Shown here one piece after another: positions 1,984 to 32,198 of a stretch of DNA of 64,000 bases. This stretch comes from an uncultured Bacilli bacterium (lineage in GTDB: Bacteria; Bacillota_I; Bacilli_A; RF39; UBA660). Position 1 is the stretch's first letter. Each line of letters begins with the position of its first letter. A model generated the notes under the pieces. The model did no database searches and had not been told where the DNA came from. It saw nothing but the letters and a program-made list of their open reading frames with translations. The stretch covers positions 34,746 to 98,745 of the forward strand of contig CAJTZC010000001.1 in NCBI GenBank assembly GCA_910583745.1, written 5' to 3'. Both the position numbers and the translations under genes were made by a program.

Positions 1984-2177
1984 AAAATATCACTTCTTTA
2001 CTATAAAGAATTGTACCATATTTTATTTCGTTTTAATATGTTATTTTAAAAAGTTTACTCTGTTTTTTGCAATCAGAAACCTAAATCTTTTTTCAGAAGT
2101 TTAGATTCATTGGAACTTAAGCTATGATTAAAATCATATAGTTTTTTAATTCTCGATCACTTAACAGTTTGGTCTCT

Positions 2178-2358
2178 CCTACTATTATTATTCCGGAAAA
2201 AATTTTTTTCTCATTATTTCTTCCACTTTTTTTCGAAGACGTGAACGCATGTTTTGTTTTCGGCCATTTTTCGACAGAGAGAGAAAAATGTCATTTTTAG
2301 AACATGCAAAAAGAGAAAATGCTTTGTTGTACATTCTCTCTCGTTTTTGCCAAAAAAT
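2178..2358. repeat. Intergenic repeat element, copy A (~180 bp). Partner copy at 31991-32176 is in the same orientation and ~88% identical. Contains internal inverted repeats.
   Basis: Direct comparison of the two regions: ctactattattattccg(g)aaaaaa...ctcattatttctt.cactttttttcga...ttttgtttt.ggcc.tttttcgaca...agaaaaatg.catttttа.aacatgcaaaaagagaaaatg.tttgttgtacatt.ctct...gc.aaaaaatga. Internal palindromes aaaaatg/cattttt and agagaaaatg/cattttctct. Confidence 0.7.
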
Positions 2359-2693
2359 GATTTTCTGTTTTTCTCTTAAAAGACTTTTCTCATCACAGGT
2401 GTATGAATTGATTTAAGTAGCTGTTTCTCCAATCTGCTATTAAGGGGGGTCAACTCTGTATTTATTATTATTCAGATGGGAGGTGTCTATTCAGTTAAAA
2501 TAGACTTAGGGGGCTTACTTCAAGTGCTTATTGTACTTGCCACTATCATTGCTTCTCTAAATAATAAAGAGAAAACGACTCATCGGTTGGAGAAACGCGA
2601 CTCGAGCAACTTGTGTTACTCTCGATTATGATTATAGGGTATGCTTTTCTTTTTTTCAAATCTTATTTTCAAAAATTATAAACCATTGTAAAT

Positions 2694-11284: not shown

Positions 11285-12037
11285 TTATTTAGTTTTTTGA
11301 TTGTCGTCTAAATTTTTAGACGATTGCATTGTCAATTCATCTAATCTCTCTTGCAAAAAGTCTAATTGTGTTTGAGAATATGTTTTATCACTACTCAAAG
11401 AAATATAACTTCCGGTGCTTTCTGGAAATTGATAGTTACAAGCAAAATTATCGTCAAAAAATTCACCGTTTTTTATAACTAAGTTTTCATTTTTATCACA
11501 TATAACTTCACCATCTTTTTGGATTGTTGTATTTTTAGTTTGTGATACATAATCTTCAGAATCTGATTTGCTAGTAACCTCTATTATCTCACTATATCCA
11601 ACATATCCTTCACTATTTAAAGAAACAGTAGTAACACTTGCAGAAGCAGAATTATCAGAAACGTCTTCATAACTTGTAGTTTCAAATGTGCAGTCTGTAT
11701 ACATCGTAGATAAAGTTTCATAAGGAATATCATGACCAAATGACATATCAATTATATCACGAATAGGTTGTTCTTCCTCCTCTTTATCGGACTTTTCTAG
11801 AACATTATAACGGTATGTTTCTAACGTTGGATCAAAAGATGCAAATATTTTTATATCCTCACCATTATAAATTTTATCACCATCAATAGGTTTTACGTCA
11901 TCTAATAGAGCATTGATTGCATCTATACTACTAAGTTCTACCTCTTCACTTGTTTTTCCTTTAAGCGAGCAGCCAGTTAACAAAAATATTGCTGCACCAA
12001 ATAGAGCCGCTGTTCTTCTTTTTAAATCATTTTTCAT
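11285..12037 (-). CDS. Acidic lipoprotein (lipobox LTGC)
   Basis: Real start MKNDLKRRTAALFGAAIFLLTGCSLKG at 12037 with GGAGG RBS (12043-12047 rc). The longer listed ORF 11285-12274 is a read-through into the duplicated tasA-like fragment. Mature protein is D/E/S/T-rich. Confidence 0.55.
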   Translation of the reverse strand: MKNDLKRRTAALFGAAIFLLTGCSLKGKTSEEVELSSIDAINALLDDVKPIDGDKIYNGEDIKIFASFDPTLETYRYNVLEKSDKEEEEQPIRDIIDMSFGHDIPYETLSTMYTDCTFETTSYEDVSDNSASASVTTVSLNSEGYVGYSEIIEVTSKSDSEDYVSQTKNTTIQKDGEVICDKNENLVIKNGEFFDDNFACNYQFPESTGSYISLSSDKTYSQTQLDFLQERLDELTMQSSKNLDDNQKTK

Positions 12038-12104
12038 AAAATTTACCTCCCTTTCGTGGCATATAATATCACTAATTTTGATAAATTGCAACCTTAAGTA
12101 ACAT

Positions 12105-12430
12105 TTATCTGCCAAGTATGTATTTATTGTATTTATCAAGTTGTCCCAACTTATCTTTGCAAAAGCATCTCTCGTACCTGTATTTTCGATGACTAACTCT
12201 TTCTCGATTGTATCTCCAAAGTTCCATGTGCCTTCTGTATTTTCTACCATTTCATCATTATCTCGAAATGTCAAAGCTAAATCGCCACTTTTTATTGTAA
12301 TTTTTTCTTGTTCATTTGTTCCTACTTAGGATATGAAGTAAGCATACGTCAAAGAAGTCGTCAAAGCGACTATTGATACACAGAGGACAATCAACGAAAC
12401 TACGTTTTTCTTATTATCTTTTTTTGTCAT
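12105..12430 (-). pseudogene. Tandem duplicate of the 5' ~320 bp of the tasA-like gene (signal peptide plus first ~100 aa), interrupted by an in-frame TAA
   Basis: 12105-12430 aligns base-for-base (~88%) with 13710-14024. Copy reads MTKKDNKK...SLTYAYFIS*VGTNEQEK... . TAA arises at cctacttagg versus cctacttggg in the intact gene. Copy starts 17 nt after the stop of the intact gene. Confidence 0.6.
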
Positions 12431-12446
12431 GTTCTTTCACATTCCT

Positions 12447-14024
12447 TTAGTTTATTTCCAAATAATATGGATTGTCGATGGTGCCATTTCCTTGGAGTTT
12501 ATCGAGGTATTCAGACTTGAGGTTGATGACTGGAATAAACTCAACGTTACTAATTACTTCTGTTTCTTTCAGGCTTCCTTCATTACTGACACCGAAGACA
12601 TGAGCATAATTAGCCCATATTCTGTATGGAGAAAATGACCCGTACCAACTTTCTTTGTAGAGATAATAATTTTGGTTTTTTGTCCCATACTTCCCACTTC
12701 CGGCTGCAACGATTTCATCTGCTGTGATTAACCCTACTGGATACGTCAAATTCCCGTTTCCTCCGCTTGTTTCTTTTACTGTGAATTTATCATTTTCTTG
12801 TGAACATGTGAATTGTGGTTGCACTTTATCAAAGTTTGCTTTTTCCACTCCACTTCTTGCATAGGCACCATATGCTGTATAGTTATTTCCATATCCTAAT
12901 CCTGTATCATTAATCCATCCTGTTACACTACTTCCTGGTGTGCTCCTGTCGTTACAGAAGATACTGTCTGCTATATAGTTTGCATATCCTGTATTTACTA
13001 TGTTTGTTTTGTACCATTCATCTACTTGTGTCTTTATCAAAGAATCTGTTTCATTTCTTTGGGCTTGTTCTTTACTCGTACTTGCACTTCCGTTTGTTCC
13101 TCCAAACATCCATCCTACATATTTTGTATCGTTGTATGTTCCATTCCACATTTGACTCGTCAGAGCAAAACCTCTCGTGTAGCTGTTCGTTTCGGGTGTA
13201 CCTGCACCATCATATTGTATTCTTACTGTTCCATCACCATTGATTCTGATAATTCTCCACCACATATCTTGTCCACTTGCGTCTCGTCCAAATTTTATAT
13301 AATTATTAGGAGCTGTTCCTCTAAAATAATAGCTTATTCCATAGTCATCTGACATGCTATATAAACCATCACCTGTTTCGTCGGTCATTGCAGGATTTGT
13401 AAAGTTAGGCACTTCTGATTTTGCATTTTTAATCAATTTTATTAGAGGAATATCAGGTTTTCCTTGTTCCAAAGTAAATTTTGTTATAAATTTAGCATTT
13501 AAGTCTGCGGTTTGGTCTATATCTGGTAAATTTTCGAATGTGATTTTTACTCTATAGGTATAGGTATGTCCTGCTGGAACAAGTAAGTGGTCTGCCAAAA
13601 GTTGAGTCAACGCTGTCTCACTTCTCGGTACATTTGCACTCACGGTTTCTACTTGTTTCCATACTGCGTTTGTCTCATCACTTTTCTCTTCCAAAGTATA
13701 GGTTAAAGATTCTGCCAAGTATGTATTTATCAAATTGTCCCAACTTATTTTTGCATAAGCATCTCTTGTCCCTGTATTCTCGATGACTAATTCTTTCTCG
13801 ATTGTGTCTCCGAAGTTCCAAGTGCCTTCTGTATTCTCTACCGTTTCATTATTATCTCTAAACGACAAAGCTAAATCTCCACTTTTAATTGTAATTTTCT
13901 CTTGCTCGTTCGTTCCTACTTGGGATACGAAGTAAGCATACGTCAAAGAAGTCGTCAAAGCGACTATCGATACACATAACACAACCAGTGAGATTATTCT
14001 TTTCTTATTGTCTTTTTCAGTCAT
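12447..14024 (-). CDS. SipW-cognate secreted protein: TasA/camelysin-like N-terminal domain plus ~350-aa Gly/Asn/Tyr/Trp-rich C-terminal extension
   Basis: 525 aa. Signal peptide ending in the SipW-cognate motif (SLTYAYFVSQ, cf. TYAAF(S/N)D of TasA). N-domain parallels TasA (ITIKSGDLALSF, WNFGDTIEKELVIENTG). A SipW-type peptidase is encoded at 26063-27151 on the same strand. Confidence 0.7.
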   Translation of the reverse strand: MTEKDNKKRIISLVVLCVSIVALTTSLTYAYFVSQVGTNEQEKITIKSGDLALSFRDNNETVENTEGTWNFGDTIEKELVIENTGTRDAYAKISWDNLINTYLAESLTYTLEEKSDETNAVWKQVETVSANVPRSETALTQLLADHLLVPAGHTYTYRVKITFENLPDIDQTADLNAKFITKFTLEQGKPDIPLIKLIKNAKSEVPNFTNPAMTDETGDGLYSMSDDYGISYYFRGTAPNNYIKFGRDASGQDMWWRIIRINGDGTVRIQYDGAGTPETNSYTRGFALTSQMWNGTYNDTKYVGWMFGGTNGSASTSKEQAQRNETDSLIKTQVDEWYKTNIVNTGYANYIADSIFCNDRSTPGSSVTGWINDTGLGYGNNYTAYGAYARSGVEKANFDKVQPQFTCSQENDKFTVKETSGGNGNLTYPVGLITADEIVAAGSGKYGTKNQNYYLYKESWYGSFSPYRIWANYAHVFGVSNEGSLKETEVISNVEFIPVINLKSEYLDKLQGNGTIDNPYYLEIN

Positions 14025-14217: not shown

Positions 14218-16467
14218 TTATTCATCGTCTCCAAAGAAATCGTCGAAGAATTGGTCGTCTGTGACGAGACCGTTGCTTAAGACGACACTCGAGTTGTCTA
14301 TGTTTGTCTTCGTAGGTGGCTCTGGCTTTACTTCTTCTTTTGGGATAACTTTTGGTGCGATTGGAGTCGCTATTTCTCGGTCTAAATCTTTTAGCATCGC
14401 TTCAATATCGGCGTTTTTCGCTGTTTTCGGCTCTATCGCATTAGTTGGAGGCATAATATTTGAGATGTCCTTCTTCATTGCGGCATTGACTTCTTTTCTC
14501 TTCCTTTCCTCTTCCGCTTGTTCTTTCTCTAATTCTGCAATTTGTTTGTCTATATTTTTTACGAGTTCATCGATGTCGACCGGTTTATCTAAGTTGAATG
14601 GGTCGTTTGAGTTTTTAAACAAATCGTTCGGTGGAGAAGACGGTAGAGATGGGCTATTTAACATATCCATCGAATTTGCCGTAGGGTTAGGTATATTTGG
14701 CAACGGATTTCCTCCTGTCGCTTCTTGGGCCTTGCTTATCGCTTCCATCGTCTTCTTGTGTTTCTCTTCCTTGACGAATTGCTTCATATCGAATGCCTTT
14801 ACTGGATAAATTTCTCTCTCTTGCAAAGTTGCATCGTCGTAAGAATCTCCCCAGTCGATATCATAAGAACCCTTGAGTACCGTTCTGAAAGGTCTCATAC
14901 GCATTCGGATGACGATGATTTCATTTCTCTTCATCTTCTGTAAATCTGTTACCGTTACGAGAGGTGTAGAGACTGTCTTGTCGTCTTTTTTCGATTTCAC
15001 TTCTCCGCATAACTTACTAATTTCTTCGAGCGCGGATAGCTCATTCGTAAGCAGGTAGATGGTATTACCACAGTTACTTCGGATGGTTTCTGCGTTTTTA
15101 TCTCCGTATACTTCATCCAATTGGGCGAAGTTCTGTATGATGAATGTGAAACGTATCTTACGAGAACGAGCAGCCGTGACCATCGAAGTGACGTCTCGAA
15201 GCTGAGGCATGTTCGCGAACTCATCGAGAATGAAGTTCGTTCTATATTTCAGTTCTCCGTTTGGACTCTTGTGTGCGACATCGATGAGGACCTCGTACAA
15301 CTGTTTAATGAAGATGGTCGCGAGAGAATGGTAAGTCGTCTTCTCATCGTGGACGATTAGGAAAACGGCTGTCTTCTCTTTACCGATGTCTTCCATGTTA
15401 AAGTCACTGTAAGAAAGCATTTCGGATAGCTCTTCACGAGTACTGAATGTCCTTATCTTACTTTGGAATACTGATAAGATACTCGATTTTGTATCATTCG
15501 GTGCGGCGATGGTCGCCTTCGCATATCCATACGCCGTAGAAGTTTCACTTTTTAATGTGAAGTAATCCTTGGCAAACGTGTTGAGACCGTTCTTCTCTTC
15601 ACCAACTGTCGCCATGTGACTGATGGAGGTGATGTTTACTTCGTTCTCTTTCGCGTCTTCGAATAGTCCTAAAGCCAAACCAGAGAAGTAGTCTGCGGCA
15701 CTTCTCTCCCAGAATGGGTCGTTCGTGTTTTTAGGGTCGATGAGAATGTTCTGGCTTATGTCCTCGAGCAACTCTTTGGCCTTGTCGGATTTTCCCTGTT
15801 TGTACATTCTATACGGAATGGTAAGGGGGTTCCACGCATTTCCTTCGCGAGGGTCTCGGAAGTTAATGACGACGATTTTGTAACCTTTATCTCTCAATCT
15901 GTTCGCATGGTGTTTGTAAATCTCACCTTTCGGGTCTGTGATGACCATGGATTCGCCGTGTTTGCATAGACTGTATACTTGGGGATCGACAAGAGCCGTA
16001 GTTTTACCTGAACCGGATTGTCCAATGATGAGGGAATGATATTCTCCATCGTCTACCCACATATTTTTACCGTCGTTAATCATGGCAATTCCTCCGGCCT
16101 CTGCGGTCGGGACGTTGACGGGAACCTTCTCGATTTTGAAGGCTGCTTTCATCTCTTTTTCGGTCGTCCAACGGTTGTAACCTTTCTCTTCTTTTTCTCC
16201 AAAGACTAAGCCTATTCCACCTTTTTCAAAGTTGAATATGGTAGAAGATACACTCATAAAGATGACAACTAGGGATGCGATAAATAGGAAAAGTGTGAGG
16301 TAGAATGTCTGCATGCTCCACGCCGAAAAATCGAGCCAAGCTAGACCTTGGTCCGAACTGAACGATAAGAAATTCAACGCTATGACGGCGCATCCAAAGA
16401 ATAGTGCAACACATATAGCTATAAACATGATAAAGTCTTTTTGTTTCACTCTGACTTTCAATTTCAT
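14218..16467 (-). CDS. Type IV coupling protein (VirD4/TraG/TcpA-family ATPase) with long acidic/Pro-rich C-terminal tail
   Basis: 749 aa. Two N-terminal TM helices. Walker A IIGQSGSGKTT. Family signature VITDPKGEIYKHHANRLRDKGYKIVVINFRDP...NPL. C-terminal 200 aa low complexity ending FFDDFFGDDE. Confidence 0.8.
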   Translation of the reverse strand: MKLKVRVKQKDFIMFIAICVALFFGCAVIALNFLSFSSDQGLAWLDFSAWSMQTFYLTLFLFIASLVVIFMSVSSTIFNFEKGGIGLVFGEKEEKGYNRWTTEKEMKAAFKIEKVPVNVPTAEAGGIAMINDGKNMWVDDGEYHSLIIGQSGSGKTTALVDPQVYSLCKHGESMVITDPKGEIYKHHANRLRDKGYKIVVINFRDPREGNAWNPLTIPYRMYKQGKSDKAKELLEDISQNILIDPKNTNDPFWERSAADYFSGLALGLFEDAKENEVNITSISHMATVGEEKNGLNTFAKDYFTLKSETSTAYGYAKATIAAPNDTKSSILSVFQSKIRTFSTREELSEMLSYSDFNMEDIGKEKTAVFLIVHDEKTTYHSLATIFIKQLYEVLIDVAHKSPNGELKYRTNFILDEFANMPQLRDVTSMVTAARSRKIRFTFIIQNFAQLDEVYGDKNAETIRSNCGNTIYLLTNELSALEEISKLCGEVKSKKDDKTVSTPLVTVTDLQKMKRNEIIVIRMRMRPFRTVLKGSYDIDWGDSYDDATLQEREIYPVKAFDMKQFVKEEKHKKTMEAISKAQEATGGNPLPNIPNPTANSMDMLNSPSLPSSPPNDLFKNSNDPFNLDKPVDIDELVKNIDKQIAELEKEQAEEERKRKEVNAAMKKDISNIMPPTNAIEPKTAKNADIEAMLKDLDREIATPIAPKVIPKEEVKPEPPTKTNIDNSSVVLSNGLVTDDQFFDDFFGDDE

Positions 16468-16523
16468 TAAATCACGCCCTTTTTCCTCACATATTATATA
16501 CTATTTTTTTAAAAATTACTACG

Positions 16524-17006
16524 TTATTCGAAATCAACTGTATATTTCATCACAGCTTCCACCGTAAAGACGTAGATATGCCCTTTTGTATCGCTGACTT
16601 TAATCGTCTGAGTCTCAGTATTTTTCTCTTTCGAAATCTCGTATCTGTCGATTTGGGGAAGCTCCGTAAAGTTAGAAGTCAGGTTTGCTGCTAGAACTCT
16701 AAAGGCTACAGAATTGGGATAAAAACCTCTCGACTTTTCGCTTAGATGCGCATAGGCTCTCGGCAAATCTTCGACGAGAAGTAACACGTAGCTATTAAAG
16801 TAAGTTCTTACCATATCTTCTTCAGTTACCGACGCGGGCTTGTACTCATTCACGCCGGTTTTTCGATTGGGTATCGCATAGTAGTCTTCGACGTCGTTGT
16901 TCGGTGCATATTCGACATCGATGCGAGAACTGACGACAAAGTATATTCCTATTGCGGCAAAAATCAGGATAATGACAAAAGTGACGACTCTATTGTTTTT
17001 GTTCAT
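16524..17006 (-). CDS. Membrane-anchored hypothetical protein (T4SS-associated by context)
   Basis: 160 aa with a single N-terminal TM. Overlaps the upstream gene stop (16990-17006). Confidence 0.35.
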   Translation of the reverse strand: MNKNNRVVTFVIILIFAAIGIYFVVSSRIDVEYAPNNDVEDYYAIPNRKTGVNEYKPASVTEEDMVRTYFNSYVLLLVEDLPRAYAHLSEKSRGFYPNSVAFRVLAANLTSNFTELPQIDRYEISKEKNTETQTIKVSDTKGHIYVFTVEAVMKYTVDFE

Positions 17007-17541
17007 CGTACAATCCTCCTATTCCCGGTTTTATCGAATATAACAATTTGTCTTCGTAGAGGACGACTGTCACATCGTAATCTGAATAGGTCGAATCTTC
17101 GTCCATCTGGGATTTCTTTATTCTTCCTTTGACGTAGTACTCGACCACATTTTTGGAAATTCTGTGTTGGTACATCTCCTCGCCCACGTAGTCGTACATG
17201 TAATTATACTCTAATTTTGGAATGTGATTTCTCACTGTCGACGCGGTAATTCTGTTCGCTTCTTTGTATTCTTCGTTTAAAAGTAGAAGCATGTCGTCTG
17301 TGTTGCCTCTTTGCATATAGTTTAGGTAACTCTTGACACAGTTTACTGCCGTGAAGTACCTCCCGGCATCTGTCACTAAGACTGTCTTTTGGCTCTCTTC
17401 TTGCTCTTTTTTGGCGTCGATTAACTTTGATACGCCGAGATAGATGAGGAAAGAGATGAAAATTAAGACAAAAACTATCGATGTCAAAACGTTCTTTTCA
17501 TTTTCATTTAAGTCTTTTAATTTCTTGGTATTTTTGTTCAT
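16990..17541 (-). CDS. Membrane-anchored hypothetical protein (T4SS-associated by context)
   Basis: 183 aa with N-terminal TM. Start overlaps the stop of the hydrolase gene (17538-17541). Confidence 0.35.
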   Translation of the reverse strand: MNKNTKKLKDLNENEKNVLTSIVFVLIFISFLIYLGVSKLIDAKKEQEESQKTVLVTDAGRYFTAVNCVKSYLNYMQRGNTDDMLLLLNEEYKEANRITASTVRNHIPKLEYNYMYDYVGEEMYQHRISKNVVEYYVKGRIKKSQMDEDSTYSDYDVTVVLYEDKLLYSIKPGIGGLYDEQKQ

Positions 17542-19685
17542 CCGAATATCCTCTCCATCGTCTTAGCCATAATTCCCACTTGGTACGCCGTATAGGCATC
17601 TCTATCTTCTTGTGTCGTCGGTACACAGTTCGCGGTGTTATTAGCCGTACAATAATCGTCTGGTTGGGAACAAGCGGCCGTCACTCGTGATGGCACGCCG
17701 TCTGGATAGATGTACTCTGCATAGTAACAACCACCGAGTCCTGGGTGACTTCCCGTGTACCAGTAATCTCCTAAATAGGCGTATCTGCTCATCATCGCTT
17801 CGACGGAATCGTACTGGGCGATGTTTTTGCAGAAGACCTCTACTCCGTGTTCAAATGAAGTGAAAGCTCGACAGTCTTTTCCCCCACCTGTGTTGGTACA
17901 ATTGTAACCGAAGTAATTATAAGAAACGCCTGGGCTGTATCCTTCAATATAACTTCTCGTAACGAAGAGCTCAGGATTTAAGTTCATACTGCTCGCGTGG
18001 TCGTATATCTTTGCGGCTCCTCCATTGTTCAAGATTTCACTCTTAAAGGAGTTACAGCCGTTTCGAGCCTGTTCTTTGCTGAAATCACATGTTCCTGCTT
18101 TGGAATAGTAGTCGTTCAGTTTTGCAATAAATTCTTCTTTCGTATATCTCGACTTATTGAAATCGACTGTTCCCGAACCTGCAGGTCGAGGATCGTCTGG
18201 ATCTACATAGTCTAAGGGCTGTTGGTACGTTCCATTCACTTTTATAGAGAAGTGCAAATGGGCTCCTGTGGAATTGCCACTCGAACCGACTTTACCGATG
18301 ACTTGTCCTCTACTGACGACGTCTCCGACCGCGACAGTGAGGGAACCTTGGTACATGTGGGCATATATCGTGAGGTTACCTTTGGTATCCTCGATTTCCA
18401 CGTAGTTGCCGAAGCCGCCTCCGCATCCGTTGGAGCCGGTCGAAGCACAAGAATTGTTGATGTATTTGACCGTTCCACCTAGGGAAGCGATGATGTTCGC
18501 CTCTCCGAGTGCGCCGGGTATATCTATACCGTTGTGCAGTTTATATTCTCCTGAAATCGGGTGTTTACGCATACCGAATGGACTGCTGATGCGAGTCGCC
18601 TCGGGGTCTCCTGCTGCGAATAGCACTCCGTTTTCTGATGTCGTCTCTCTCGATCCGATAGGCCACCAGTACGCATTGCCCGTGCCAACCGAAGTCGCGA
18701 GTTGTGTTTCGCTGACATGGTCTTTTACGATATTTTTAATATCTTCTATGATGTCGTCGCGAACGACTTGCAGTTCTTCGTCAGCCCAACTGCTCAAATC
18801 TTCGCTCAGTCCGTGGTTTCTTCCGTAGTCTTTAAAGCGACTGACTAGATGAGGCTTGTCGTCGAAATAGGAAGACTCTCTTAAATATTTGTAGTATCCA
18901 TCGATGGAAGCTTTACTCGAAGTCGTATCTTCGATTTTTACGGTTCCCGATGTCCTACGTTTACACTCCTCCGAAGCCGTTTTAAAGTCTTCGTCGTCGA
19001 TGCCTATCCCTGTGATGATGCGGAATTTGTCGAAGAAGTTAAAAGTAAACGTTTCGTTATGAAAGTTTACCATCGCATCGGCATGCTCTACTACCTCGCC
19101 GTTTTCATTTGTCGTCGTATAATGGCAAATTGCCGTATTGACTTTAAACTGTTTGATGAGCTCTTTTAGGGAATCTTGTTCTCGTTTATACATGTTTTCT
19201 CCCGCTTGGACTTCGTAGTTTATCTCTTCTGAGTCGTCGATGTCGAGGACACCCGTTCCCGTGACAAATTCTTCTATGTCTAAACCGTAGAAAATCGTCG
19301 TCAGTACGATGTATTTTTGCTCTTTTGAAAGTCTGTATTTTTTTTCTAACGAATTCAATTTTTCGTAAAATTTCTTTTGGTCTTCTTGTAATTTTTTGGC
19401 CGCCTCTAACTGTTCTTCTGAGCAGTTTTTATCGTCGTCTTCGCATAGACTTGTCCAGTATTCTTCGTATTCCTTCTTTAAATCGTCGGTGACTTGCGCG
19501 TCGTCCGAATAATTTAAGAAGACGTCTGGAACCAAGCCCATTAGGACCCCTGTGCCTAAAAAGATGCCCATGAAAGCGGCGATGCCACCTATTATTGTCA
19601 ATTTGGCATTGAATGGGAGATTATGCCAAAGACTTTTTAATTTGTCGCCAAATGAAATTCCGTTTTGACCCTCGTCTCCCATCAT
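17538..19685 (-). CDS. T4SS-associated cell-wall hydrolase: membrane-anchored protein with M23 (LytM) metallopeptidase domain and Cys-rich C-terminal putative muralytic domain
   Basis: 715 aa with N-terminal TM. M23 motifs HNGIDI ... GNYVEI ... GNSTGAHLHF. C-terminal ~230 aa are Cys/Gly/Tyr-rich. Positionally equivalent to VirB1-like hydrolases of Gram-positive conjugation systems. Confidence 0.7.
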   Translation of the reverse strand: MMGDEGQNGISFGDKLKSLWHNLPFNAKLTIIGGIAAFMGIFLGTGVLMGLVPDVFLNYSDDAQVTDDLKKEYEEYWTSLCEDDDKNCSEEQLEAAKKLQEDQKKFYEKLNSLEKKYRLSKEQKYIVLTTIFYGLDIEEFVTGTGVLDIDDSEEINYEVQAGENMYKREQDSLKELIKQFKVNTAICHYTTTNENGEVVEHADAMVNFHNETFTFNFFDKFRIITGIGIDDEDFKTASEECKRRTSGTVKIEDTTSSKASIDGYYKYLRESSYFDDKPHLVSRFKDYGRNHGLSEDLSSWADEELQVVRDDIIEDIKNIVKDHVSETQLATSVGTGNAYWWPIGSRETTSENGVLFAAGDPEATRISSPFGMRKHPISGEYKLHNGIDIPGALGEANIIASLGGTVKYINNSCASTGSNGCGGGFGNYVEIEDTKGNLTIYAHMYQGSLTVAVGDVVSRGQVIGKVGSSGNSTGAHLHFSIKVNGTYQQPLDYVDPDDPRPAGSGTVDFNKSRYTKEEFIAKLNDYYSKAGTCDFSKEQARNGCNSFKSEILNNGGAAKIYDHASSMNLNPELFVTRSYIEGYSPGVSYNYFGYNCTNTGGGKDCRAFTSFEHGVEVFCKNIAQYDSVEAMMSRYAYLGDYWYTGSHPGLGGCYYAEYIYPDGVPSRVTAACSQPDDYCTANNTANCVPTTQEDRDAYTAYQVGIMAKTMERIFG

Positions 19686-19708
19686 AATGTCAAATCACCT
19701 CTCGTCTA

Positions 19709-21496
19709 TTATAGTCCTCCGCCTGTACCAAATGAATCGAGTTCATCTTGGGTAAGAACTACGTTAATCTGCATGCGGCGAGAACCACATACGAACAATC
19801 CTTGGCCTTGGCTGAAGCGTTTAATAGCCTCAATCTCGTTTTCGTTCAAGTCTATCAGCTTCGCCAAATCTTCTGAAGCCTGTTTTCTCAAGCCCATCGC
19901 GAGGTAATAACTCGCATTGTCGAATATCGCTTTACCGTGCATGAGAATTTTCTCTGCGGCGAAGTCGGTAGGCTGTTGTGTAATGATAATCGTACCTGTG
20001 TTGTATTTACGGCTACGTCTCTGTATCTGTGCGAGGAACTCTGCACCGAGTTCGTTTTGGCTTCCCAACAATACGTGCGCTTCGTCTACGGATAAAATCG
20101 TATTGATATCTTTATCGAGACAGAGGCTCCAAGCATATTTCAAAATGTTGAAGAACAGTGCGTTTCTTATCGATGAATCGGAGTTCATGAGTTCTCTGAT
20201 GTTGAAAACGATGAAGTTGGATTCCGGCTCAATCGTCGTATGTCCATTGAAGTAGTATCTCAACTCTTTCGTTATCGGTCTTATTTTTAATTCCAATCTC
20301 TCCATGACGTCTCTTTCGCGCGTGTGTTCTGGCATAGAAAGAATTCTACCTTTTATGGTCGCGTATACGTCGTCGAATGTAGGGAAATCTTTGCTCTTAA
20401 AGCGACTGAAATCTGTGTTGAAATCGATGTTGAAACGTTTGTATGTATCTTGGACGACATCGCTGAAAAGCGTCAATACGTCATCTTCGATGTCTGGATA
20501 CAAATAAGTCATGAAGGCTTTTAAGGTCGAAAGGGTTCTCGCAAGAACAGAGTACCCTTGTCCGTTTCTTATGTCTTCTTCGTCTTCGTCGATGATGATT
20601 TCCAACGGATTGACCATACCGAGTTCTCCACCTTTACCTAAGTTGATGAAGTCTCCATTAAAGTTTTTAGCCATCTCTTCGAGTTCGCCTTCTGGGTCGA
20701 TGGCGACGATTTTGTACTCGTTTCTGAAGTGGTTTCTGAGCATCAGTTTTGCTGCAGTCGATTTACCTGAACCGGAAGCTCCCAAGATGAGCATGTTCGC
20801 GTTGTTTCTGTTGTGTTCTTTTTTGATCTGGTATAGAAATTGGTTGAATAGGACGACACCGCCGGAGAAGTCTATTCCTAACAAAGTACTCAACCCCGGG
20901 TCTTTGATGCTGTCGAATACGAATGGGTACATTGCTGCGATGGTATTCGAAGGGATTGGCGTTCCAATTCGGTCCTCGATATCCTGTTTTGGGAATATCG
21001 GAATCATGGACTTTAGTACTTTCTCTTGTTCGAACATCAAAGGAATTCCTCTCATGTCCATTCCAGTCATATACGTCTTTATCTCCATTTTTTTGTTTTC
21101 GAGTTCGTCTTCCGTGTCAGCACTTATCATGACGTGCATCTGAAAGTCGAAAATCTTAGCACTGGAAGCAGCAAGTTGTTGTATGAAAGCCTCCAATGAT
21201 TCGTAATCTTGTCTTATTCTCTCTTGCAATGTGTGGTCGTTTTCTTTTTGGAATCTGTCCTTTAAGTCGGCGATTTCTTTGTCTATCATCTTTCTCATCA
21301 ACTCGAAGTCGATAGGAATATGTTTGACGACGACTTTTACTCCTGGAATGTTCGTGATGTTTGCAAGATAGCCGTGGTCTATGAATTTAGGATAGCTTAT
21401 GATTGTGAGAATCGTACAGAACTTCTCTCCCAATCGAAAGCTCGTCGGTCTAAATTCGATGCCCTTAGGGGCCAGTTCGCTTTTTAAACTACTCAT
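19709..21496 (-). CDS. VirB4-family type IV secretion ATPase
   Basis: 595 aa. Walker A ILGASGSGKSTAAK. C-terminal VirB4 signature SVDEAHVLL...RRSRKYNTGTIIITQQPTDF. Confidence 0.8.
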   Translation of the reverse strand: MSSLKSELAPKGIEFRPTSFRLGEKFCTILTIISYPKFIDHGYLANITNIPGVKVVVKHIPIDFELMRKMIDKEIADLKDRFQKENDHTLQERIRQDYESLEAFIQQLAASSAKIFDFQMHVMISADTEDELENKKMEIKTYMTGMDMRGIPLMFEQEKVLKSMIPIFPKQDIEDRIGTPIPSNTIAAMYPFVFDSIKDPGLSTLLGIDFSGGVVLFNQFLYQIKKEHNRNNANMLILGASGSGKSTAAKLMLRNHFRNEYKIVAIDPEGELEEMAKNFNGDFINLGKGGELGMVNPLEIIIDEDEEDIRNGQGYSVLARTLSTLKAFMTYLYPDIEDDVLTLFSDVVQDTYKRFNIDFNTDFSRFKSKDFPTFDDVYATIKGRILSMPEHTRERDVMERLELKIRPITKELRYYFNGHTTIEPESNFIVFNIRELMNSDSSIRNALFFNILKYAWSLCLDKDINTILSVDEAHVLLGSQNELGAEFLAQIQRRSRKYNTGTIIITQQPTDFAAEKILMHGKAIFDNASYYLAMGLRKQASEDLAKLIDLNENEIEAIKRFSQGQGLFVCGSRRMQINVVLTQDELDSFGTGGGL

Positions 21497-22041
21497 TGAC
21501 TCGTCACCGCTCCAAATCTAGAAGATTCTGCTCCGCTGAAGAAGTTATCGATAAGCATGCGCAGGTCGTCGTTGGATACTTGTTTGCTGTTTAAAGTACA
21601 GTTTGCCAAACCACTTATCAAGTTCTGTAAGCGTTTTTGTATAATCTCCGGTTTCTTTTCTCTAAATAAGATAAAGTATTCTGTATCTACTGCATTCATC
21701 TGTGTACTCATGAACATGTTGGCTTTGTTGATATCTTGCATCAAGAGTTTTCGAATGTGTTGGTTGTTCGTGTTGTTGTATTGCACTTGCAAATTTGCAA
21801 GGTATACGTTGATATCGACGGGTCTTCCGGCTGAAATCAACCAGAATTCGTAGTCGAGTGTGTTGTAGAATGTACGAAGTGAGAAGATGACATTGTTTTG
21901 GACATCTTGGTCGAGAATGAAAATGTTTTTTGGCTCTATCTTTACTCCTGTCACAAGAAAGCCATTGTCTAGAAGTATCATACCGTTTTGAATGGCTCTT
22001 ATAGGAATCCAATCTTCGGCAGGTTTATTTGTTGTTGCCAT
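21493..22041 (-). CDS. Hypothetical protein translationally coupled (ATGA overlap) to VirB4; possibly a split-off N-terminal VirB4 domain
   Basis: 182 aa, no TM. 182 + 595 aa approximates a full-length Gram-positive VirB4 (~780-830 aa). Confidence 0.35.
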   Translation of the reverse strand: MATTNKPAEDWIPIRAIQNGMILLDNGFLVTGVKIEPKNIFILDQDVQNNVIFSLRTFYNTLDYEFWLISAGRPVDINVYLANLQVQYNNTNNQHIRKLLMQDINKANMFMSTQMNAVDTEYFILFREKKPEIIQKRLQNLISGLANCTLNSKQVSNDDLRMLIDNFFSGAESSRFGAVTSQ

Positions 22042-22342
22042 TTTTATAGCACCATCCTCTCCATTTGTACGTCCTCTGTCTTACGAAGTAAAACGTGTAT
22101 ATGTTTGTAATCAGTTGTAATACGTTGTGATAATGTGGCACGGGGAAAACTAGAAACGCTGCGACCATGGCTGGCAACAGTATGAGTAGCATTCCCACGA
22201 TTGAGTCTGTATGTATTGCAAACATCATGATGAGTGTAAGTCCTACTCCCGAACTGAATAAAATTAAATCCAATGGAGTGAACAATCCTAGTATCATTTC
22301 CGACTTTTTTGAGTTGGCCGGAATTAAGTATCTGCCATTCAT
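22025..22342 (-). CDS. Small two-TM protein, VirB3/PrgI-like
   Basis: 105 aa with a hydrophobic helical hairpin. Positioned immediately upstream of VirB4 as in Gram-positive T4SS loci. Confidence 0.45.
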   Translation of the reverse strand: MNGRYLIPANSKKSEMILGLFTPLDLILFSSGVGLTLIMMFAIHTDSIVGMLLILLPAMVAAFLVFPVPHYHNVLQLITNIYTFYFVRQRTYKWRGWCYKNGNNK

Positions 22343-22362
22343 CTTTTATTCCTCTTTTCTTC

Positions 22363-24576
22363 TTACTTTTTATCATTTTTATTGCTAGCTTGTTCTGCAG
22401 CTTTCTTATTAGCTTGCTTTGCATCTGAGCGCAATTTCTCTTGAACCCTTTGTTGTTGGTATACTGTATTTTTTTCAATGTCTTTAAGATTTGGTTTAAA
22501 TCCATCTCCACTTAATATAGGATTTCCAGCAGTATCTTTTTTAATATTTCCAGCGGAGTCGCGAGTATATCCCGTTTCGACTATATCAGTTAATGCATCC
22601 AGTTGAGCTTGAGCATCCGCCGCTGTAGAAATGCTACCGATGTCGTCAATTTTAATGCGTTGTGAAGTAACACCTTTAACTCCTTGATGTGCATCAATGA
22701 AGTTGTTCAAACGGCCTGCCGCTTCCATGAATTGAAGTTTTTTGTCTTTGAGTACTTCTGCTTGACGTGAATCGCGCATAGTTTTTGCGCGGTTTTGTAA
22801 CTCTCCATAAGTAAGACCAGTATTTTTATCCACTGATAGTGCTTCAAGTTCAGCGAGAGTTTTACCAGTAACACTATCTACTGACGTTGCACTTGCACCA
22901 GACCTTTTAAACCTTAAATAATCGCTACCATCCATTACAGCTCCAGATTTAATCATATTGTCATAACGTTTGAATTCTGAGTCTGCCTGACTGTATTGAG
23001 CATCATTACGCCAAATGCTCGCAAGTGAATCGTTATAAAGTTTTTTATACTCTTGCAAAACTTCATCTTGATGTTTAATTTTAAGATAATCGTTATCAAG
23101 GCCAGTATATGCCATACTAGCAGAGCCAATAGTTCTACCCATGTCGGAAAGATGACCTCTCGTAGAGCCCATAAATCCCGAATGTGCGTGTGCGTAAGCA
23201 TCTCTGTTTACTCGAGCTGTAACGACATTCTTATTAACATTTCTACGCAAGTTGTTAGCATCTTTTATACTGTGGACATTTCTAGCACCCCAAGCATTTC
23301 GGAAGAATGTTGAAGAAGCACCTCCGACTCCACTTCCGAGTTTCTGAAATACATTTCCATCAGTAGAATTGAAGTTCCTTATAGCATTACCTACCATAGA
23401 TCCAGCAGTTCCTCCGAGGAATGCAGCCATACCACCGACAGGTTTGAGGCTCTTCATCGCGTCTGTTACTAGACCCATGCCCTTGATACCTAGGAGGTCC
23501 ATCAGAAGTTTTGGTGCATCTTTTGCGAACAATAGCAATCCGAATGTCAATAAGACTACAGTTATAATTTTTACTAGGCTTATGCCGTCTTCTGTCATGT
23601 TTCCGAATAGTCTTCCCACTGTGCCTGGAATGAGCGAGATGAGGAAGATTATCAAATACATCACGAGAAGATACATGAAGACTTCGATATAGACTTTTAT
23701 CAATGTATCTATCCAATTCTTTCTGAGTCCTTTTTTATTTGGAAGTAACTCTAGAGTGACTGGTACAGGTGCGATGAGCTGGATTATGGCTAGTTTGCCT
23801 ACTCGCTTTGCTAGGCTTATGCAGAAAATTAACATAAAATACAAGAGCACCAGCCCTGCGGCTGTCGATAAAAACGGTGTATAGTTGTAGTCGCCATTGG
23901 AGACAAAATCGCCATAAGGAGCTATGTTACCTGAGTGTTTGACTGTTTTATACGCTTCACAATAGTAATTGAACGTCGTATCTTTGAGGTATTCTTCGTT
24001 TGTACAATCTAGGGACGTCTTCCCATCGTTCGGATAGAGGAAAGCTGCGTATATCGAGGAGACCATCGTATTCGCGCCGTTTTGAATGTAATAATCGGTA
24101 AGCGAGCTGTAATTGTTTTTGTTCTGTTCGTACAACTCATAGTCGGCCGCGGTTTCGTTGTTCGCCCCTCCTAAAATCAGTGTGGGAATGACTCCCGAAG
24201 AGATGACCATGCTTTGGAACGAATAGAGCTTTGTGAACAACATCGGTGTCATCGAGATGATGACCAAAGCGATGATGACGTCTTTTACAAATGCAGACGC
24301 TCCGATTTTTTTGTCGTTGACCTTGTCCGGGTCGATGATGTAGTTCAGCAAATTGAATGCCAACACAAAGACCATGACGATGCTCAAAATGGTGTACATT
24401 CTCACCGTCACGTTTTTCACTATGCTATCGTCCAAAATAGAAGCATTCGATAAATAGTAGAATACAGCATAGGCCACTTTGGCAAGACTGTAAATACCTT
24501 TATCTATAAGGAAAGTCAGGTTTCTAAAGCCTTTTTCAAGAAAGTTTAGCCCTGTTAATAACAACGGATTAAGCAT
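22363..24576 (-). CDS. VirB6/TrbL-like polytopic membrane protein with ~400-aa hydrophilic C-terminal extension
   Basis: 737 aa. At least 6 TM helices in the N-terminal half, then a soluble Gly/Ser/Ala/Lys-rich C-terminal domain. Typical architecture of Gram-positive VirB6 homologues. Confidence 0.55.
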   Translation of the reverse strand: MLNPLLLTGLNFLEKGFRNLTFLIDKGIYSLAKVAYAVFYYLSNASILDDSIVKNVTVRMYTILSIVMVFVLAFNLLNYIIDPDKVNDKKIGASAFVKDVIIALVIISMTPMLFTKLYSFQSMVISSGVIPTLILGGANNETAADYELYEQNKNNYSSLTDYYIQNGANTMVSSIYAAFLYPNDGKTSLDCTNEEYLKDTTFNYYCEAYKTVKHSGNIAPYGDFVSNGDYNYTPFLSTAAGLVLLYFMLIFCISLAKRVGKLAIIQLIAPVPVTLELLPNKKGLRKNWIDTLIKVYIEVFMYLLVMYLIIFLISLIPGTVGRLFGNMTEDGISLVKIITVVLLTFGLLLFAKDAPKLLMDLLGIKGMGLVTDAMKSLKPVGGMAAFLGGTAGSMVGNAIRNFNSTDGNVFQKLGSGVGGASSTFFRNAWGARNVHSIKDANNLRRNVNKNVVTARVNRDAYAHAHSGFMGSTRGHLSDMGRTIGSASMAYTGLDNDYLKIKHQDEVLQEYKKLYNDSLASIWRNDAQYSQADSEFKRYDNMIKSGAVMDGSDYLRFKRSGASATSVDSVTGKTLAELEALSVDKNTGLTYGELQNRAKTMRDSRQAEVLKDKKLQFMEAAGRLNNFIDAHQGVKGVTSQRIKIDDIGSISTAADAQAQLDALTDIVETGYTRDSAGNIKKDTAGNPILSGDGFKPNLKDIEKNTVYQQQRVQEKLRSDAKQANKKAAEQASNKNDKK

Positions 24577-24582
24577 AAATTA

Positions 24583-25110
24583 TCACCCCGCATTGATGTG
24601 AGACGAGCATTCGGAACCGAATGGGTCGAATATACAAGCACTGCACACCTTTGAATCGTCTGTAATGTTGTCGTTATATTTGGCTATAAAGCCGAAGAGC
24701 GTATAGACAATCGTCGGCAAGAAAACGATGATGATGGCGGCGAGTATCGAGACCATCATTTTGCTCGCCTTTTTTTTCAGTTCGTCCGGTTTTCCATTCG
24801 TCACGACAGAGACAAAACTCATGCTCGCCTTGACGATGATAATGATAGGAAGAATCACTTTTACTAAGAATAAAATAATACCACCGATTCGAATCGTTCC
24901 CGCAAAATCGTGACAGTTGCCATCGAATAAATCCTCTCGATTCGGATCGAATGTCCCTATCTCCGCCTTTTTAGTGGTAGTCGTTCCTCCTCCCCCTGGA
25001 CCATAGTTTGTCGCCGTGTTTGCGGCATTTACTTTTGGCACGAGAAGGAAACAGAAAATAAATACTATTGTAAGAATATAGCTAAACTTCTTCATAATTT
25101 CACCTAGCAA
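24583..25110 (-). CDS. Small secreted protein with signal peptide and two hydrophobic helices (VirB2-like topology)
   Basis: 175 aa. Signal peptide ...VPKVNA-AN. Gly/Thr-rich linker. Two TM helices and a Cys-containing C-terminus. Confidence 0.35.
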   Translation of the reverse strand: MLGEIMKKFSYILTIVFIFCFLLVPKVNAANTATNYGPGGGGTTTTKKAEIGTFDPNREDLFDGNCHDFAGTIRIGGIILFLVKVILPIIIIVKASMSFVSVVTNGKPDELKKKASKMMVSILAAIIIVFLPTIVYTLFGFIAKYNDNITDDSKVCSACIFDPFGSECSSHINAG

Positions 25111-25230
25111 GATTATAACATATAATTCCGTTATAATAAAGCAATAAATTCAAAGACAAGAAAAAAGGTTCACCCTGAATTTTTAGTGAATCTTTTTGTT
25201 TTTTTCTATCATTTTTTTAAAAAATTTCAT

Positions 25231-26046
25231 CTATTTTACTGCGACGTCGTGTTCGACTTTGACTTCGATAGAGAGTGTCTGTTCATCGGCAGATTCTGGT
25301 GCTTCTGTACTCAACCAGAAGACGATTTTAAAGTCTGAATTCGCGTCTTTTATCTGTGCACCTGTCATCATCGTCATCGAACCATCTGCATCGGTTTCTA
25401 ACTCTTCTAAAGTACCAATTCTACTCTCATAGGTTCTTCCATCCCAAGAGTTCGTATAGATATATTTGTATTTCACGTATTTCTTTTCGAGTGGATTTGT
25501 CGTGGAAACGTCGCTCTTTTTCAGTTTGACAGTGTAATTGACTAGATAATCCAATGCGGAGAGGTGTCCAGCTGCATTTTTTATCGTGAATTGTATCGGT
25601 TCGTTTTCTAGACCAATTTCATCAGGAACACCTTTTACATCTTGCAACTGAACGATAGCACTGTTTACATATTCGACTGAGACCAACTCGGAAAGTTCTT
25701 TTTCGGTGTATTGTGGAGTCTCGTCTGGACGCGTTATTTTAAAGAAGTTGTAAGCTTGAAATATAGTAAAAATACTCACTCCTGCGAGGACAAAGCCGAA
25801 GAAAAAGATGAGAAGTGCGATGCGATGGTCGTCGTCCATCATCGATACCCAGATTTCCTCTGTTCTCTTATCGATGTCTTTCGCCGTATACTCTTTTGTT
25901 ATGAGAGTCTCATACGCTCTTTCTACTGCTTTGGAAATTCTTTTTCTTTTCTTTTTTGCTCTTCGCGAATCTTCTTCTTTTTCCAAAGTGTTTTCTGCTA
26001 TAGCGAGGGCTTCTTTTAATTTGTCGATGTTTGGAAACTCTTTCAT
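25231..26046 (-). CDS. Bitopic membrane protein (VirB8-like topology), unknown function
   Basis: 271 aa. Charged N-terminal cytoplasmic part, TM at ~aa 78-100, ~170-aa extracytoplasmic domain. Confidence 0.3.
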   Translation of the reverse strand: MKEFPNIDKLKEALAIAENTLEKEEDSRRAKKKRKRISKAVERAYETLITKEYTAKDIDKRTEEIWVSMMDDDHRIALLIFFFGFVLAGVSIFTIFQAYNFFKITRPDETPQYTEKELSELVSVEYVNSAIVQLQDVKGVPDEIGLENEPIQFTIKNAAGHLSALDYLVNYTVKLKKSDVSTTNPLEKKYVKYKYIYTNSWDGRTYESRIGTLEELETDADGSMTMMTGAQIKDANSDFKIVFWLSTEAPESADEQTLSIEVKVEHDVAVK

Positions 26047-26062
26047 CAGGGATCACCTCTTT

Positions 26063-30953: not shown

Positions 30954-31912
30954 TTAAATACCTAAGTCTTTTTTCAATATCTCTATTTCTTTGATGTTCA
31001 ACATAAGATTCTCAATGATTGTCTCTAGAGGGGTTCCAGAGTCATAGAATTTCTTGGCAGCACTTATTTTATATTTTTGTTCTTCTCGCTTAGCTTCTTT
31101 GCGACCTTCTTTGCGACCTTTTGCGATTCCAATCGCCTCGCCCTCCAAACGACAATCGTTCTCCATCTCTTCTTGTATGGTGATTTCTCTTAGCTTTTCT
31201 CTATCGTAGATAAGGTATCTGTCTATATCACATTCTAAACCGTATAATTTCTCTTTCACTGCTTCCATCAACTCATCTCCTTCATATATCTCGTCTAACT
31301 CTTTGTGATTCGCATTCGCGAATATATAGAGCAATCTCTCTATGGAATGTTTTTCCTTCTCTTTAATCTCAGTATAAAACTTTTTTCCTAGATAGTCTAG
31401 ATTTACATCGATTATTTCTAATATATTGTGTATTCGTTCTAGATTTAACGCCTCTGCCCGGATATTACTTCGAGTAATAAACTCATCTTCTTTGTACACG
31501 GGCTTGCTGTTGAGATTGATTTGGTATATTTTTTCTATTTTCTTGTAGTCCTCTGGACTATTCACTTGTCTTAAAGCTAACTCGAACATATACAACGTAT
31601 TCTTGTTCAAGAGTGCTTTTCCAAGTGTCCAGTTCACTTAATCGATACAATCCCTACTCCCGTCTTTACTACTAAATCTGCGACACTGTCTACAGTATCT
31701 TTGGAAAGACCCAGTCTTATATCGAGATAACTGAATCCCTTTGCTACTTCTTCTACAGGCTTCTCGATAAGTGTAGCGATAAGTAAAATGAGATAGTCTT
31801 GGTGGCTCTCGTCGCTCAGCAACTTCGTAGCAAAAAAATCGTATTGATAACTTTCTTGGAGATAATTCCTCTTTTTTATTCTTTTTATTTTTGTTGGTAA
31901 AGTCATATGCAT
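30954..31912 (-). pseudogene. Rpn/YhgA-like PD-(D/E)XK nuclease (putative transposase), split by a frameshift into ORFs 31634-31912 and 30954-31637
   Basis: C-terminal region GEAIGIAKGRKEGRKEAKREEQ...AKKFYDSGTPLETIIENLMLNIKEIEIL matches the characteristic Rpn-family tail. Two ORFs abut with a 4-nt overlap in different frames. Confidence 0.45.
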
Positions 31913-31990
31913 TCTCCTTCTTTATTGACTTTCACCACCGATTTATTCTTTTTTGAAAAAACTCTCTTTTGTTTCCCTTTCTTCAGTTCC

Positions 31991-32176
31991 TCTACTATTA
32001 TTATTCCGAAAAAAATTTATTTTTCTCATTATTTCTTTCACTTTTTTTCGACGAGGAGAACGCCTGTTTTGTTTTTGGCCTTTTTTCGACAAATAGAGAA
32101 AAATGCCATTTTTAAAACATGCAAAAAGAGAAAATGTTTTGTTGTACATTTTCTCTTGGTTTTGCTAAAAATGAAT
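31991..32176. repeat. Intergenic repeat element, copy B (partner of 2178-2358)
   Basis: ~88% identity to copy A in the same orientation, including a perfect 10-bp stem agagaaaatg/cattttctct and aaaaatg/cattttt. Confidence 0.7.
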
Positions 32177-32198
32177 TATTGTTAAAAAGTCATCTCAT

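Follow-up and report, generated by a model that had tools for sequence, protein, structure and literature searches.

The two ~180-nt direct repeats in this 64-kb window (the window being the whole stretch of DNA analysed, 64,000 nucleotides) are very probably the 5′ flanks of multi-copy Rpn-family (PDDEXK_2-type) nuclease genes, present here as two cassettes in the same orientation, both of them dead. The two copies are homologous, they are accompanied by gene relics, they are linked to Rpn-like genes among the fetched loci, and they show conservation across species. In the model that we favour, the gene at locus B would have been killed by a frameshift and the gene at locus A by deletion, and the flank would have been duplicated along with the gene, possibly being homogenised afterwards by gene conversion. 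The flank itself would be tripartite: a stem-loop, AU-rich and followed by a U-rich tail, which would block transcription running on from the upstream gene; a stretch of A/T-rich DNA containing small palindromes; and a core of ~42 nt with a sigma-70-like promoter and presumably an operator as well. For annotation, the two intergenic repeats can be replaced by a pseudogene and a gene relic, both from a known multi-copy family, and the readings of the repeat as a MITE, an sRNA or an att site can be put aside for that purpose. Rpn-type nucleases are toxic and their regulation is not understood; the core is a candidate regulatory site, kept upstream of genes whose proteins are ~45% identical. The finding is ordinary and chiefly of annotation use.

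Nearly all genes of the window lie on the minus strand. Copy A has on one side an unknown gene of 270 aa, the last of a GT2/HEAT/CotH/DUF4956/VTC cluster, and on the other an MFS transporter gene (start 1983); copy B is flanked by a P-type ATPase gene and by a PDDEXK_2-like gene that is split (ATG 31906). Both copies are intergenic and upstream of minus-strand genes, as the initial annotation of this DNA had placed them. The interval from A to B carries type IV secretion/conjugation genes (VirD4-like, VirB4-like, M23 peptidase), a MerR regulator and an HTH-VanZ gene, and to the left of the window the contig holds the core chromosome genes rpsO, pnp, relA and dtd.

The direct repeat pair described in the initial annotation was recovered at the same places. 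In the blastn alignment of window positions 2179-2356 and 31992-32171, which spans 180 columns and includes a single 2-nt indel, identity is 89.4% (E=3e-65) and both sequences run the same way. Softer blastn scoring widened the homology to 2369..2179 against 32183..31992 (88.1% over 193 columns), and with these limits the P-type ATPase gene, whose stop codon is 32199-32201, ends 16 nt before copy B begins. The two copies are delimited as follows:

2179..2369, minus strand: copy A, read as 5′-flanking DNA of an Rpn-like gene of which little is left (blastn)
31992..32183, minus strand: copy B, read as the 5′ flank of an Rpn-like pseudogene (blastn, ORF map)

The copy number in the 64-kb window is two. 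No third copy was found in the source-contig flanks, 9.2 kb to the left and 9.4 kb to the right of the window (~19 kb together), which were taken, like the window, from a 127-kb contig of metagenome assembly ERZ17757487 (run ERR3199540). An exact scan with the repeat 21-mer AACATGCAAAAAGAGAAAATG returned four genome loci, one metagenome locus and no viral loci; these were chance matches of 21–22 nt except for L007, where 37 nt match the repeat at 89% (E=3e-7), and this too was taken as chance. Searches of plasmids and phages gave no relevant match by blastn with the repeat or with the second-species flank described below, and no match by tblastn with the Rpn homologues. The first ~12 kb of the window also occur, without a difference, in MAG GCA_949902605.1, on a contig that runs ~5 kb further, and the Logan contig L009 terminates inside copy A.

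The gene downstream of copy B occupies a single interval on the ORF map:

30954..31906, minus strand: Rpn/PDDEXK_2-like pseudogene (ORF map, homologue comparison)

A 1-nt deletion at ~31637-31640 breaks this gene into ORFs of 90 and 227 aa. By comparison with the intact homologues at L013 and L014, the deletion falls in the codon for the E of ..SIEVNW.., a Glu shared by all the aligned homologues, which confirms that the Rpn-family gene beside copy B is frameshifted. The reconstructed protein has 39 homologues in a collection of 5.8 billion proteins; the intact ones are 299–310 aa long, the closest being P0002 (310 aa) and P0003 (299 aa), in the group of homologues with 85–89% identity. P0002, P0003, P0005 and P0011 score 30–34 bits against PF12784, above its cut-off of 27.4 bits, and the gene fragments of the window by themselves match PDDEXK_2 weakly, at 18.7 bits. 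TIGR01784 (Rpn family recombination-promoting nuclease/putative transposase) matches the intact homologues with E=2e-10 to 5e-6 (P0002 and P0003 with E=2e-10 to 3e-8) at scores of 26–41 bits, under its cut-off of 52 bits. Judged by these profile matches, the locus B protein is a divergent member of the Rpn family / PF12784, and the family assignment made in the initial annotation holds for such a member.

Behind copy A, two short segments correspond to parts of a second gene of the same kind:

2120..2173, minus strand: relic of Rpn codons ~29-46 (tblastn, alignment)
2063..2129, minus strand: 3′-terminal relic of an Rpn-like gene (blastn, alignment)

The first of these opens 6 nt past the end of copy A. 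Its translation, TKLLSDRELKNYMILIIA, aligns with TKLLSDESHQDYLILLIA of the B gene (tblastn E=0.008), and 13 of its 18 residues are identical in P0004. The second aligns with 31010-30944 at 70.6% over 68 nt (blastn E=4e-5) and, over 36 nt, is 83% identical to the end of the L013 gene; its translation, ..LLKKDLGF* against ..ILKKDLGI*, covers the last ~13 codons and the stop, and the match continues for ~10 nt more. These matches are short, and each is modest taken singly; their order, strand and adjacency fit a second Rpn-like gene. Locus A is, as far as its sequence can be read, an Rpn-like gene that has lost the 5′ UTR, codons 1 to ~28 and a further ~250 codons of its interior, so that what is left there is the upstream flank and a stub of ~110 nt. 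Because the relics at A are collinear with the gene at B, each repeat can be taken as the flank lying upstream in one of two paralogous cassettes, of which the one at B holds a pseudogene and the one at A a stub, and the stub at A together with the Rpn gene at B explains the duplication. The initial annotation had rightly named an Rpn gene as the neighbour of copy B; its restriction of such a gene to B did not stand, since copy A carries the stub of another.

Homologous loci place the repeat in front of intact genes. L014, from another sample, is the orthologue of locus B, with the 3′ end of the ATPase gene, the repeat and an intact gene (97.7% over 1553 nt). At L013 the orthologous gene is not preceded by the repeat; an IS1595-family element, inserted 47 nt before the ATG, stands in its place. 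Loci L015-L026 and L029-L030 represent a second species, whose Rpn-like proteins are 43–47% identical and lie in at least three upstream contexts: some follow a Lon-like gene, others an AI-2E transporter gene, and L022 has an uncharacterised flank. In all second-species loci with enough upstream sequence, the promoter-proximal half of the repeat has a homologous counterpart. Their upstream region aligns with copy A at 72.8% over 103 nt (E=3e-12) and with copy B, through to the ATG, at 67.8% over 174 nt (E=1.6e-18). The initial annotation rightly took the excess conservation of the repeat over the surrounding intergenic DNA as meaningful.

Conservation across species centres on a core of ~42 nt, AATGAGAAAAAT..TTTTYCGGAATAATAATAGTAGAGG, which is ~87–90% conserved and lies about 90–130 nt before the ATG (in B, 83–124 nt before 31906). 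Aligned, the core reads AATGAGAAAAAT[A/G]AA..TTTT[C/T]CGGAATAATAATAGTAGAGG, with 87% identity over 50 nt between the species. The between-species means are 63.5% for the upstream region and 62.3% for the coding region, one coding stretch alone beats the core, and the comparison comprises two effective lineages. The core 17-mer CGGAATAATAATAGTAG occurs in 16 of the 26 fetched loci, and in all 16 it either precedes the ATG of an Rpn-like gene by ~90–105 nt or belongs to relic A. The second species does not share the 5′ half of the repeat (hairpin and 7-1-7 palindrome), so that comparison lends no support to a function of this half, and the upstream element is absent from L027 and L028, which hold more distant Rpn homologues (35–40% identity). 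A scan of viral contigs with a core 20-mer gave two chance matches inside unrelated coding DNA. The 5′ boundary of the unit varies in the second species (-204, -257 and beyond -450; here it is -271). Second-species copies are ~100% identical from -204/-257 to ~nt +765 and unrelated past that point, and the C-terminal tails fall into three types, shared across species and preceded by xGRx runs (EGRE/QGRK-type) of differing length.

Read on the minus strand from the upstream gene towards the ATG, the flank contains the following elements:

32121..32165, minus strand: terminator-like hairpin of copy B (folding, -17.6 kcal/mol)
2306..2350, minus strand: terminator-like hairpin of copy A (folding, -18.3 kcal/mol)
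32099..32113, no strand assigned: 7-1-7 palindrome of copy B, AAAAATGcCATTTTT
2284..2298, no strand assigned: 7-1-7 palindrome of copy A, AAAAATGtCATTTTT
31989..32030, minus strand: conserved core of copy B, AATGAGAAAAATAAATTTTTTTCGGAATAATAATAGTAGAGG (cross-species alignment)
2176..2215, minus strand: conserved core of copy A (alignment; 2 mismatches in the last 20 nt)
31907..31991, minus strand: presumed 5′ UTR of locus B, ~85 nt from core to ATG, with Shine-Dalgarno GAAGGAG

The hairpin of copy B opens 34 nt past the ATPase stop codon and has the form GCAAAA..AAGAGAAAATGT-loop-ACATTTTCTCTTTTTGC, then ATGTTTT; its 17-bp stem contains a 3-nt bulge and is followed by the U-rich tail UUUGCAUGUU(U/C)U. 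Copies A and B differ by two stem substitutions, both A-to-G on the minus strand, where they give G.U pairs (-18.3 versus -17.6 kcal/mol); on the plus strand the same two substitutions produce A.C mismatches (A -11.6 versus B -17.7 kcal/mol). This strand-specific pattern lends modest support to an RNA-level role on the gene strand. A terminator scan flagged the hairpin solely on the plus strand of copy B. Its simplest role would be that of a terminator, insulating a toxic-nuclease gene from read-through.

Both palindromes listed in the initial annotation are present. In B the arms of the pair AGAGAAAATG/CATTTTCTCT, 12 nt each (32126-32137 and 32146-32157), match perfectly; in A there is one mismatch, counted on the plus strand. 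The 7-1-7 palindrome AAAAATGnCATTTTT (AAAAATG-n-CATTTTT) keeps one half alone in the second species; an RNA hairpin would need a longer loop, and the palindrome may instead be a binding site of a dimeric protein. Between this palindrome and the core lies a partly conserved block, GAAAAA.GGC.AAAAAC.AAACA...GTTC..TCGA. The core of copy B contains ATGAGA (32029-32024), an 18-nt spacer and AATAAT (32005-32000), which together agree with the sigma-70-type hexamers at 9 of 12 positions; the same arrangement occurs in L015 and, by alignment, in L014, and in copy A the 2-nt indel cuts the promoter-like spacer to 16 nt. We infer that the core is the promoter/operator of the Rpn-like gene. The presumed 5′ UTR is present at B, deleted at A and partly conserved in two other lineages; on the contig of P0004 (50% identity), which includes 57 nt upstream of the gene, the conserved 5′ UTR was confirmed.

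The flank is better preserved than the gene behind it. Between A and B, identity is 89% in the flank and ~69% in the gene relics (Fisher p=1e-5). L014 and copy B of the window differ at 12 sites in the ~190 nt of the repeat, and their flanks differ by 0–3%; 5 of the 12 differing sites carry the copy-A state, a mosaic that hints at gene conversion. The excess identity of the flank would reflect regulatory constraint and/or gene conversion between the copies, and its possible sources include constraint, conversion among paralogues, and derivation of A from a more distant paralogue. A bolder proposal, which we regard as a long shot, is that the ~42-nt core (..TTTTCCGGAATAATAATAGTAGAGG) serves as a cis site for the Rpn-type nuclease or for the host recombination machinery. 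It would then start gene conversion between paralogues, keeping the 5′ flank and the N-terminal 255 codons near-identical and allowing C-terminal tail cassettes to be swapped at a fixed breakpoint near nt +765. If this were true, the core would be a DNA substrate for the long-unexplained 'recombination-promoting' activity.

The same conservation pattern bears on two other accounts, both of which we consider improbable and to a similar degree. The repeat itself could be functionless, a neutral product of segmental duplication or what remains of a pseudogene, its flank kept by recent conversion or by chance. Such an origin would suit the death of both associated genes, the presence of only two copies in the window, the altered promoter-like spacer of A and the L014 mosaic with its suggestion of conversion. 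It does not account for the promoter-proximal half of the repeat being kept before intact second-species genes, where the 50-nt core is 87% identical and the protein ~45%; since the core is conserved before intact genes, its sequence appears to be constrained where the gene is alive. Alternatively, the repeat could encode a structured RNA, either a cis-acting leader (a 5′ UTR riboregulator of the Rpn-like gene) or a small RNA from the minus strand. The minus-strand folding z-scores of -3.65 (B) and -2.45 (A) are in keeping with this, as are the hairpin substitutions that are wobble-compatible on the minus strand alone, the retention of core and 5′ UTR across species, and a possible stem around the Shine-Dalgarno and AUG in three lineages. 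However, the plus strand folds equally well, so the z-score comes from the palindromes. The RNAalifold consensus reaches -11.5 kcal/mol over 246 columns from two effective lineages, the larger stems differ between the window species (CGAAAAAAA/TTTTTTTCG) and the second species (CATTTTTT/AAAAAATG), and the best-conserved block is kept as sequence and not as pairs. Rfam 15 gave no match at the gathering threshold anywhere in the window; for the copies there was only noise at E<=10, the best sub-threshold matches reaching 15–22 bits against thresholds of 50–100 bits. The earlier suggestion of a structured ncRNA or leader is thus weak: folding is strand-symmetric, the consensus fold is poor and the Rfam search returned no family; the exception is the terminator-like hairpin, whose substitutions favour the minus strand.

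The remaining readings fare considerably worse than these two. A non-autonomous mobile repeat of the MITE/REP type, also suggested initially, would have the right size, intergenic position, A/T-richness and internal palindromes, and a contig end inside copy A, as in L009, is the kind of break that occurs at repeats. Against it, there are no terminal inverted repeats, just A/T-only stretches of 14 nt (79–86%) lying 19 nt inside the ends; there is no target-site duplication, and the flanks of A and B differ. Only two copies occur in ~83 kb, the public 21-mer scans gave chance matches, the 5′ boundary of the unit is variable in the second species, and every occurrence of the 17-mer (16 loci) is tied to an Rpn-like gene or relic, all of which makes a MITE very unlikely. 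It is harder still to credit that the copies are attL/attR-like sites bounding a 29.8-kb segment with type IV secretion (conjugation) genes. The direct repeats do lie around the VirD4-like, VirB4-like and M23 peptidase genes, and core chromosome (rpsO, pnp, relA) does lie to the left of the window. Yet the cores of att sites are identical to each other, and these copies are 89% identical with an indel. No tRNA was found, and the ORFs of >=120 aa between the copies contain no integrase or recombinase domain. The segment also carries the GT2/CotH/VTC cluster, gene relics on the inner side explain the repeat, and a homologous unit stands at unrelated loci of the second species; the att-like candidate was dropped on these grounds. 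About as implausible is that the minus-strand ORF within the repeat encodes a small protein of 48 aa (A) or 68 aa (B). This ORF, starting MYNK.., is open in both copies, but the differences between them comprise 10 non-synonymous and 2 synonymous changes, with 7 of 12 at codon position 2, and the 2-nt indel alters the C-terminus. A search of 5.8 billion proteins found the ORF product itself as the sole match, and the frame is not kept in the second species. With no purifying selection on the frame and no homologues, a coding role for the repeat ORF was rejected. An ENA assembly calls an ORF inside the repeat as a gene.

The reading of the repeat as the 5′ flank of Rpn-like genes can be set beside several known systems. 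MITEs and REP/BIME elements resemble it in size, intergenic position and internal palindromes; unlike them, the repeat has no TIR/TSD and a low copy number and is attached to one gene family. It also resembles conversion-homogenised 5′ regions of paralogues, or solo relics, in the contrast between flank (89%) and coding relic (~69%) and in its mosaicism between strains, although conversion here would be drawn from few sites, without resolved tract boundaries. PDDEXK2 'transposons' flank cif genes in Wolbachia and Rickettsiaceae (PMC12445526), and these share with our genes the Pfam family, the multi-copy state and a setting in rearranged regions rich in mobile elements. They belong to different phyla and were called transposons from phylogenetic co-transfer; the two are compared by description, with no shared flank sequence known.

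For E. coli, the portion of the study of Zhong et al. (2023, PMC10400941) drawn on here describes rpn genes as multi-copy; the duplicated regions end at variable points and show neither inverted repeats nor target-site duplications. The same portion describes a small hypervariable C-terminal domain, with 4-residue repeats in variable number, that is translated separately as an antitoxin. The characterised E. coli family also has an internal translation start that yields this RpnS antitoxin, nuclease toxicity and an anti-phage effect. The genes considered here differ from those in that they encode PF12784 proteins of uncultured low-GC bacteria that score under the TIGR01784 cut-off. A conserved non-coding upstream core is not described in that portion of the paper, where the legend of Fig. 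1 marks an internal promoter. As in the E. coli Rpn system, so far as that portion presents it, the gene here belongs to the PD-(D/E)XK 'putative transposase' superfamily, occurs in several copies per genome with variable ends and no TIR/TSD, and carries a hypervariable C-terminal tail after variable xGRx repeats. The low-GC PDDEXK_2 genes therefore share the hypervariable C-terminal tail of the E. coli Rpn toxin-antitoxin genes.

At the Rpn-like genes, a sequence in the 5′ UTR, GGT[T/G]AAAG(TC), can be paired with (GA)CTTTAAC in codons 2–4, and this pairing would enclose both the Shine-Dalgarno sequence and the AUG. The potential pairing is present in three lineages:

window 31895-31935, minus strand: 6 bp
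L015 (second-species locus) 2470-2512: 9 bp
L031 (locus of a further lineage) 20-70: 7 bp

Judged from sequence, the stem may be a translational control hairpin of the Rpn-like genes.

Another candidate regulatory arrangement lies just beyond copy A of the ~180-bp direct repeat, and not within it:

window 2476-2631, plus strand: 51-aa ORF, hydrophobic in its core (..LLQVLIVLATIIASL..) and charged in its tail
window 2631-2659, minus strand: promoter-like site TTGAAA-17-TATAAT, near-consensus (11/12)

The promoter-like site faces the ORF, and on sequence grounds the two resemble a type I toxin with its antisense RNA. Within copy A, a Logan contig from an independent assembly (L009, ERR3199695) stops at window 2324, within the hairpin's 5′ arm, which is consistent with branching of the assembly graph, either repeat-induced or strain-induced.

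Two second-species loci, L021 and L023, have identical genes upstream of the Rpn-like gene (RecD2-like and an AI-2E transporter) but differ downstream of it, with rpoB in the former and a 462-aa gene in the latter. Either the DNA has been rearranged at the Rpn gene, or the assembly is chimeric at a repeat. In another sample, the repeat has been removed or displaced by an insertion at the orthologue of locus B:

L013 19-1285: IS1595-family transposase element, whose insertion lies 47 nt before the ATG of the Rpn-like gene

Elsewhere, the window carries conjugation genes, large ORFs and further repeats:

14218-27151: conjugation/type IV secretion genes (VirD4-like coupling protein, M23 peptidase, VirB4-like ATPase)
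36002-44758, minus strand: 2918-aa ORF, adjoining the following protein
47123-51709: 1528-aa FtsK/SpoIIIE-domain protein
12128-12427 and 13722-14021: 300-nt direct repeat (87% identity), at the 5′ ends of two minus-strand ORFs
49-434: 36-nt-period repeat, 8 copies, in the 3′ portion of a minus-strand gene for 922 aa (11307-14075 in L008, a locus overlapping the left end)

The conjugation genes have a chromosomal setting, with rpsO-pnp-relA directly left of the window, a layout suggestive of an ICE-like island. Among ORFs of at least 120 aa, none had a recognised integrase or relaxase domain. The 2918-aa ORF had no Pfam domains at E≤0.001. The neighbouring minus-strand ORFs 11285-12274 and 12447-14024, whose 5′ ends fall within the 300-nt repeat, look like tandem paralogues, and neither had a Pfam match.

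Near-identity among the Rpn-like paralogues and orthologues ends at about nt +765 of the gene, beyond which the C-terminal tails are unrelated (window 30954-31140; 3′ ends in L013, L014, L015, L021, and L023). The tails are of three types, common to two species, and are preceded on the N-terminal side by runs, variable in length, of four-residue xGRx repeats. The RpnS antitoxin domain of the E. coli Rpn proteins shows a similar arrangement.
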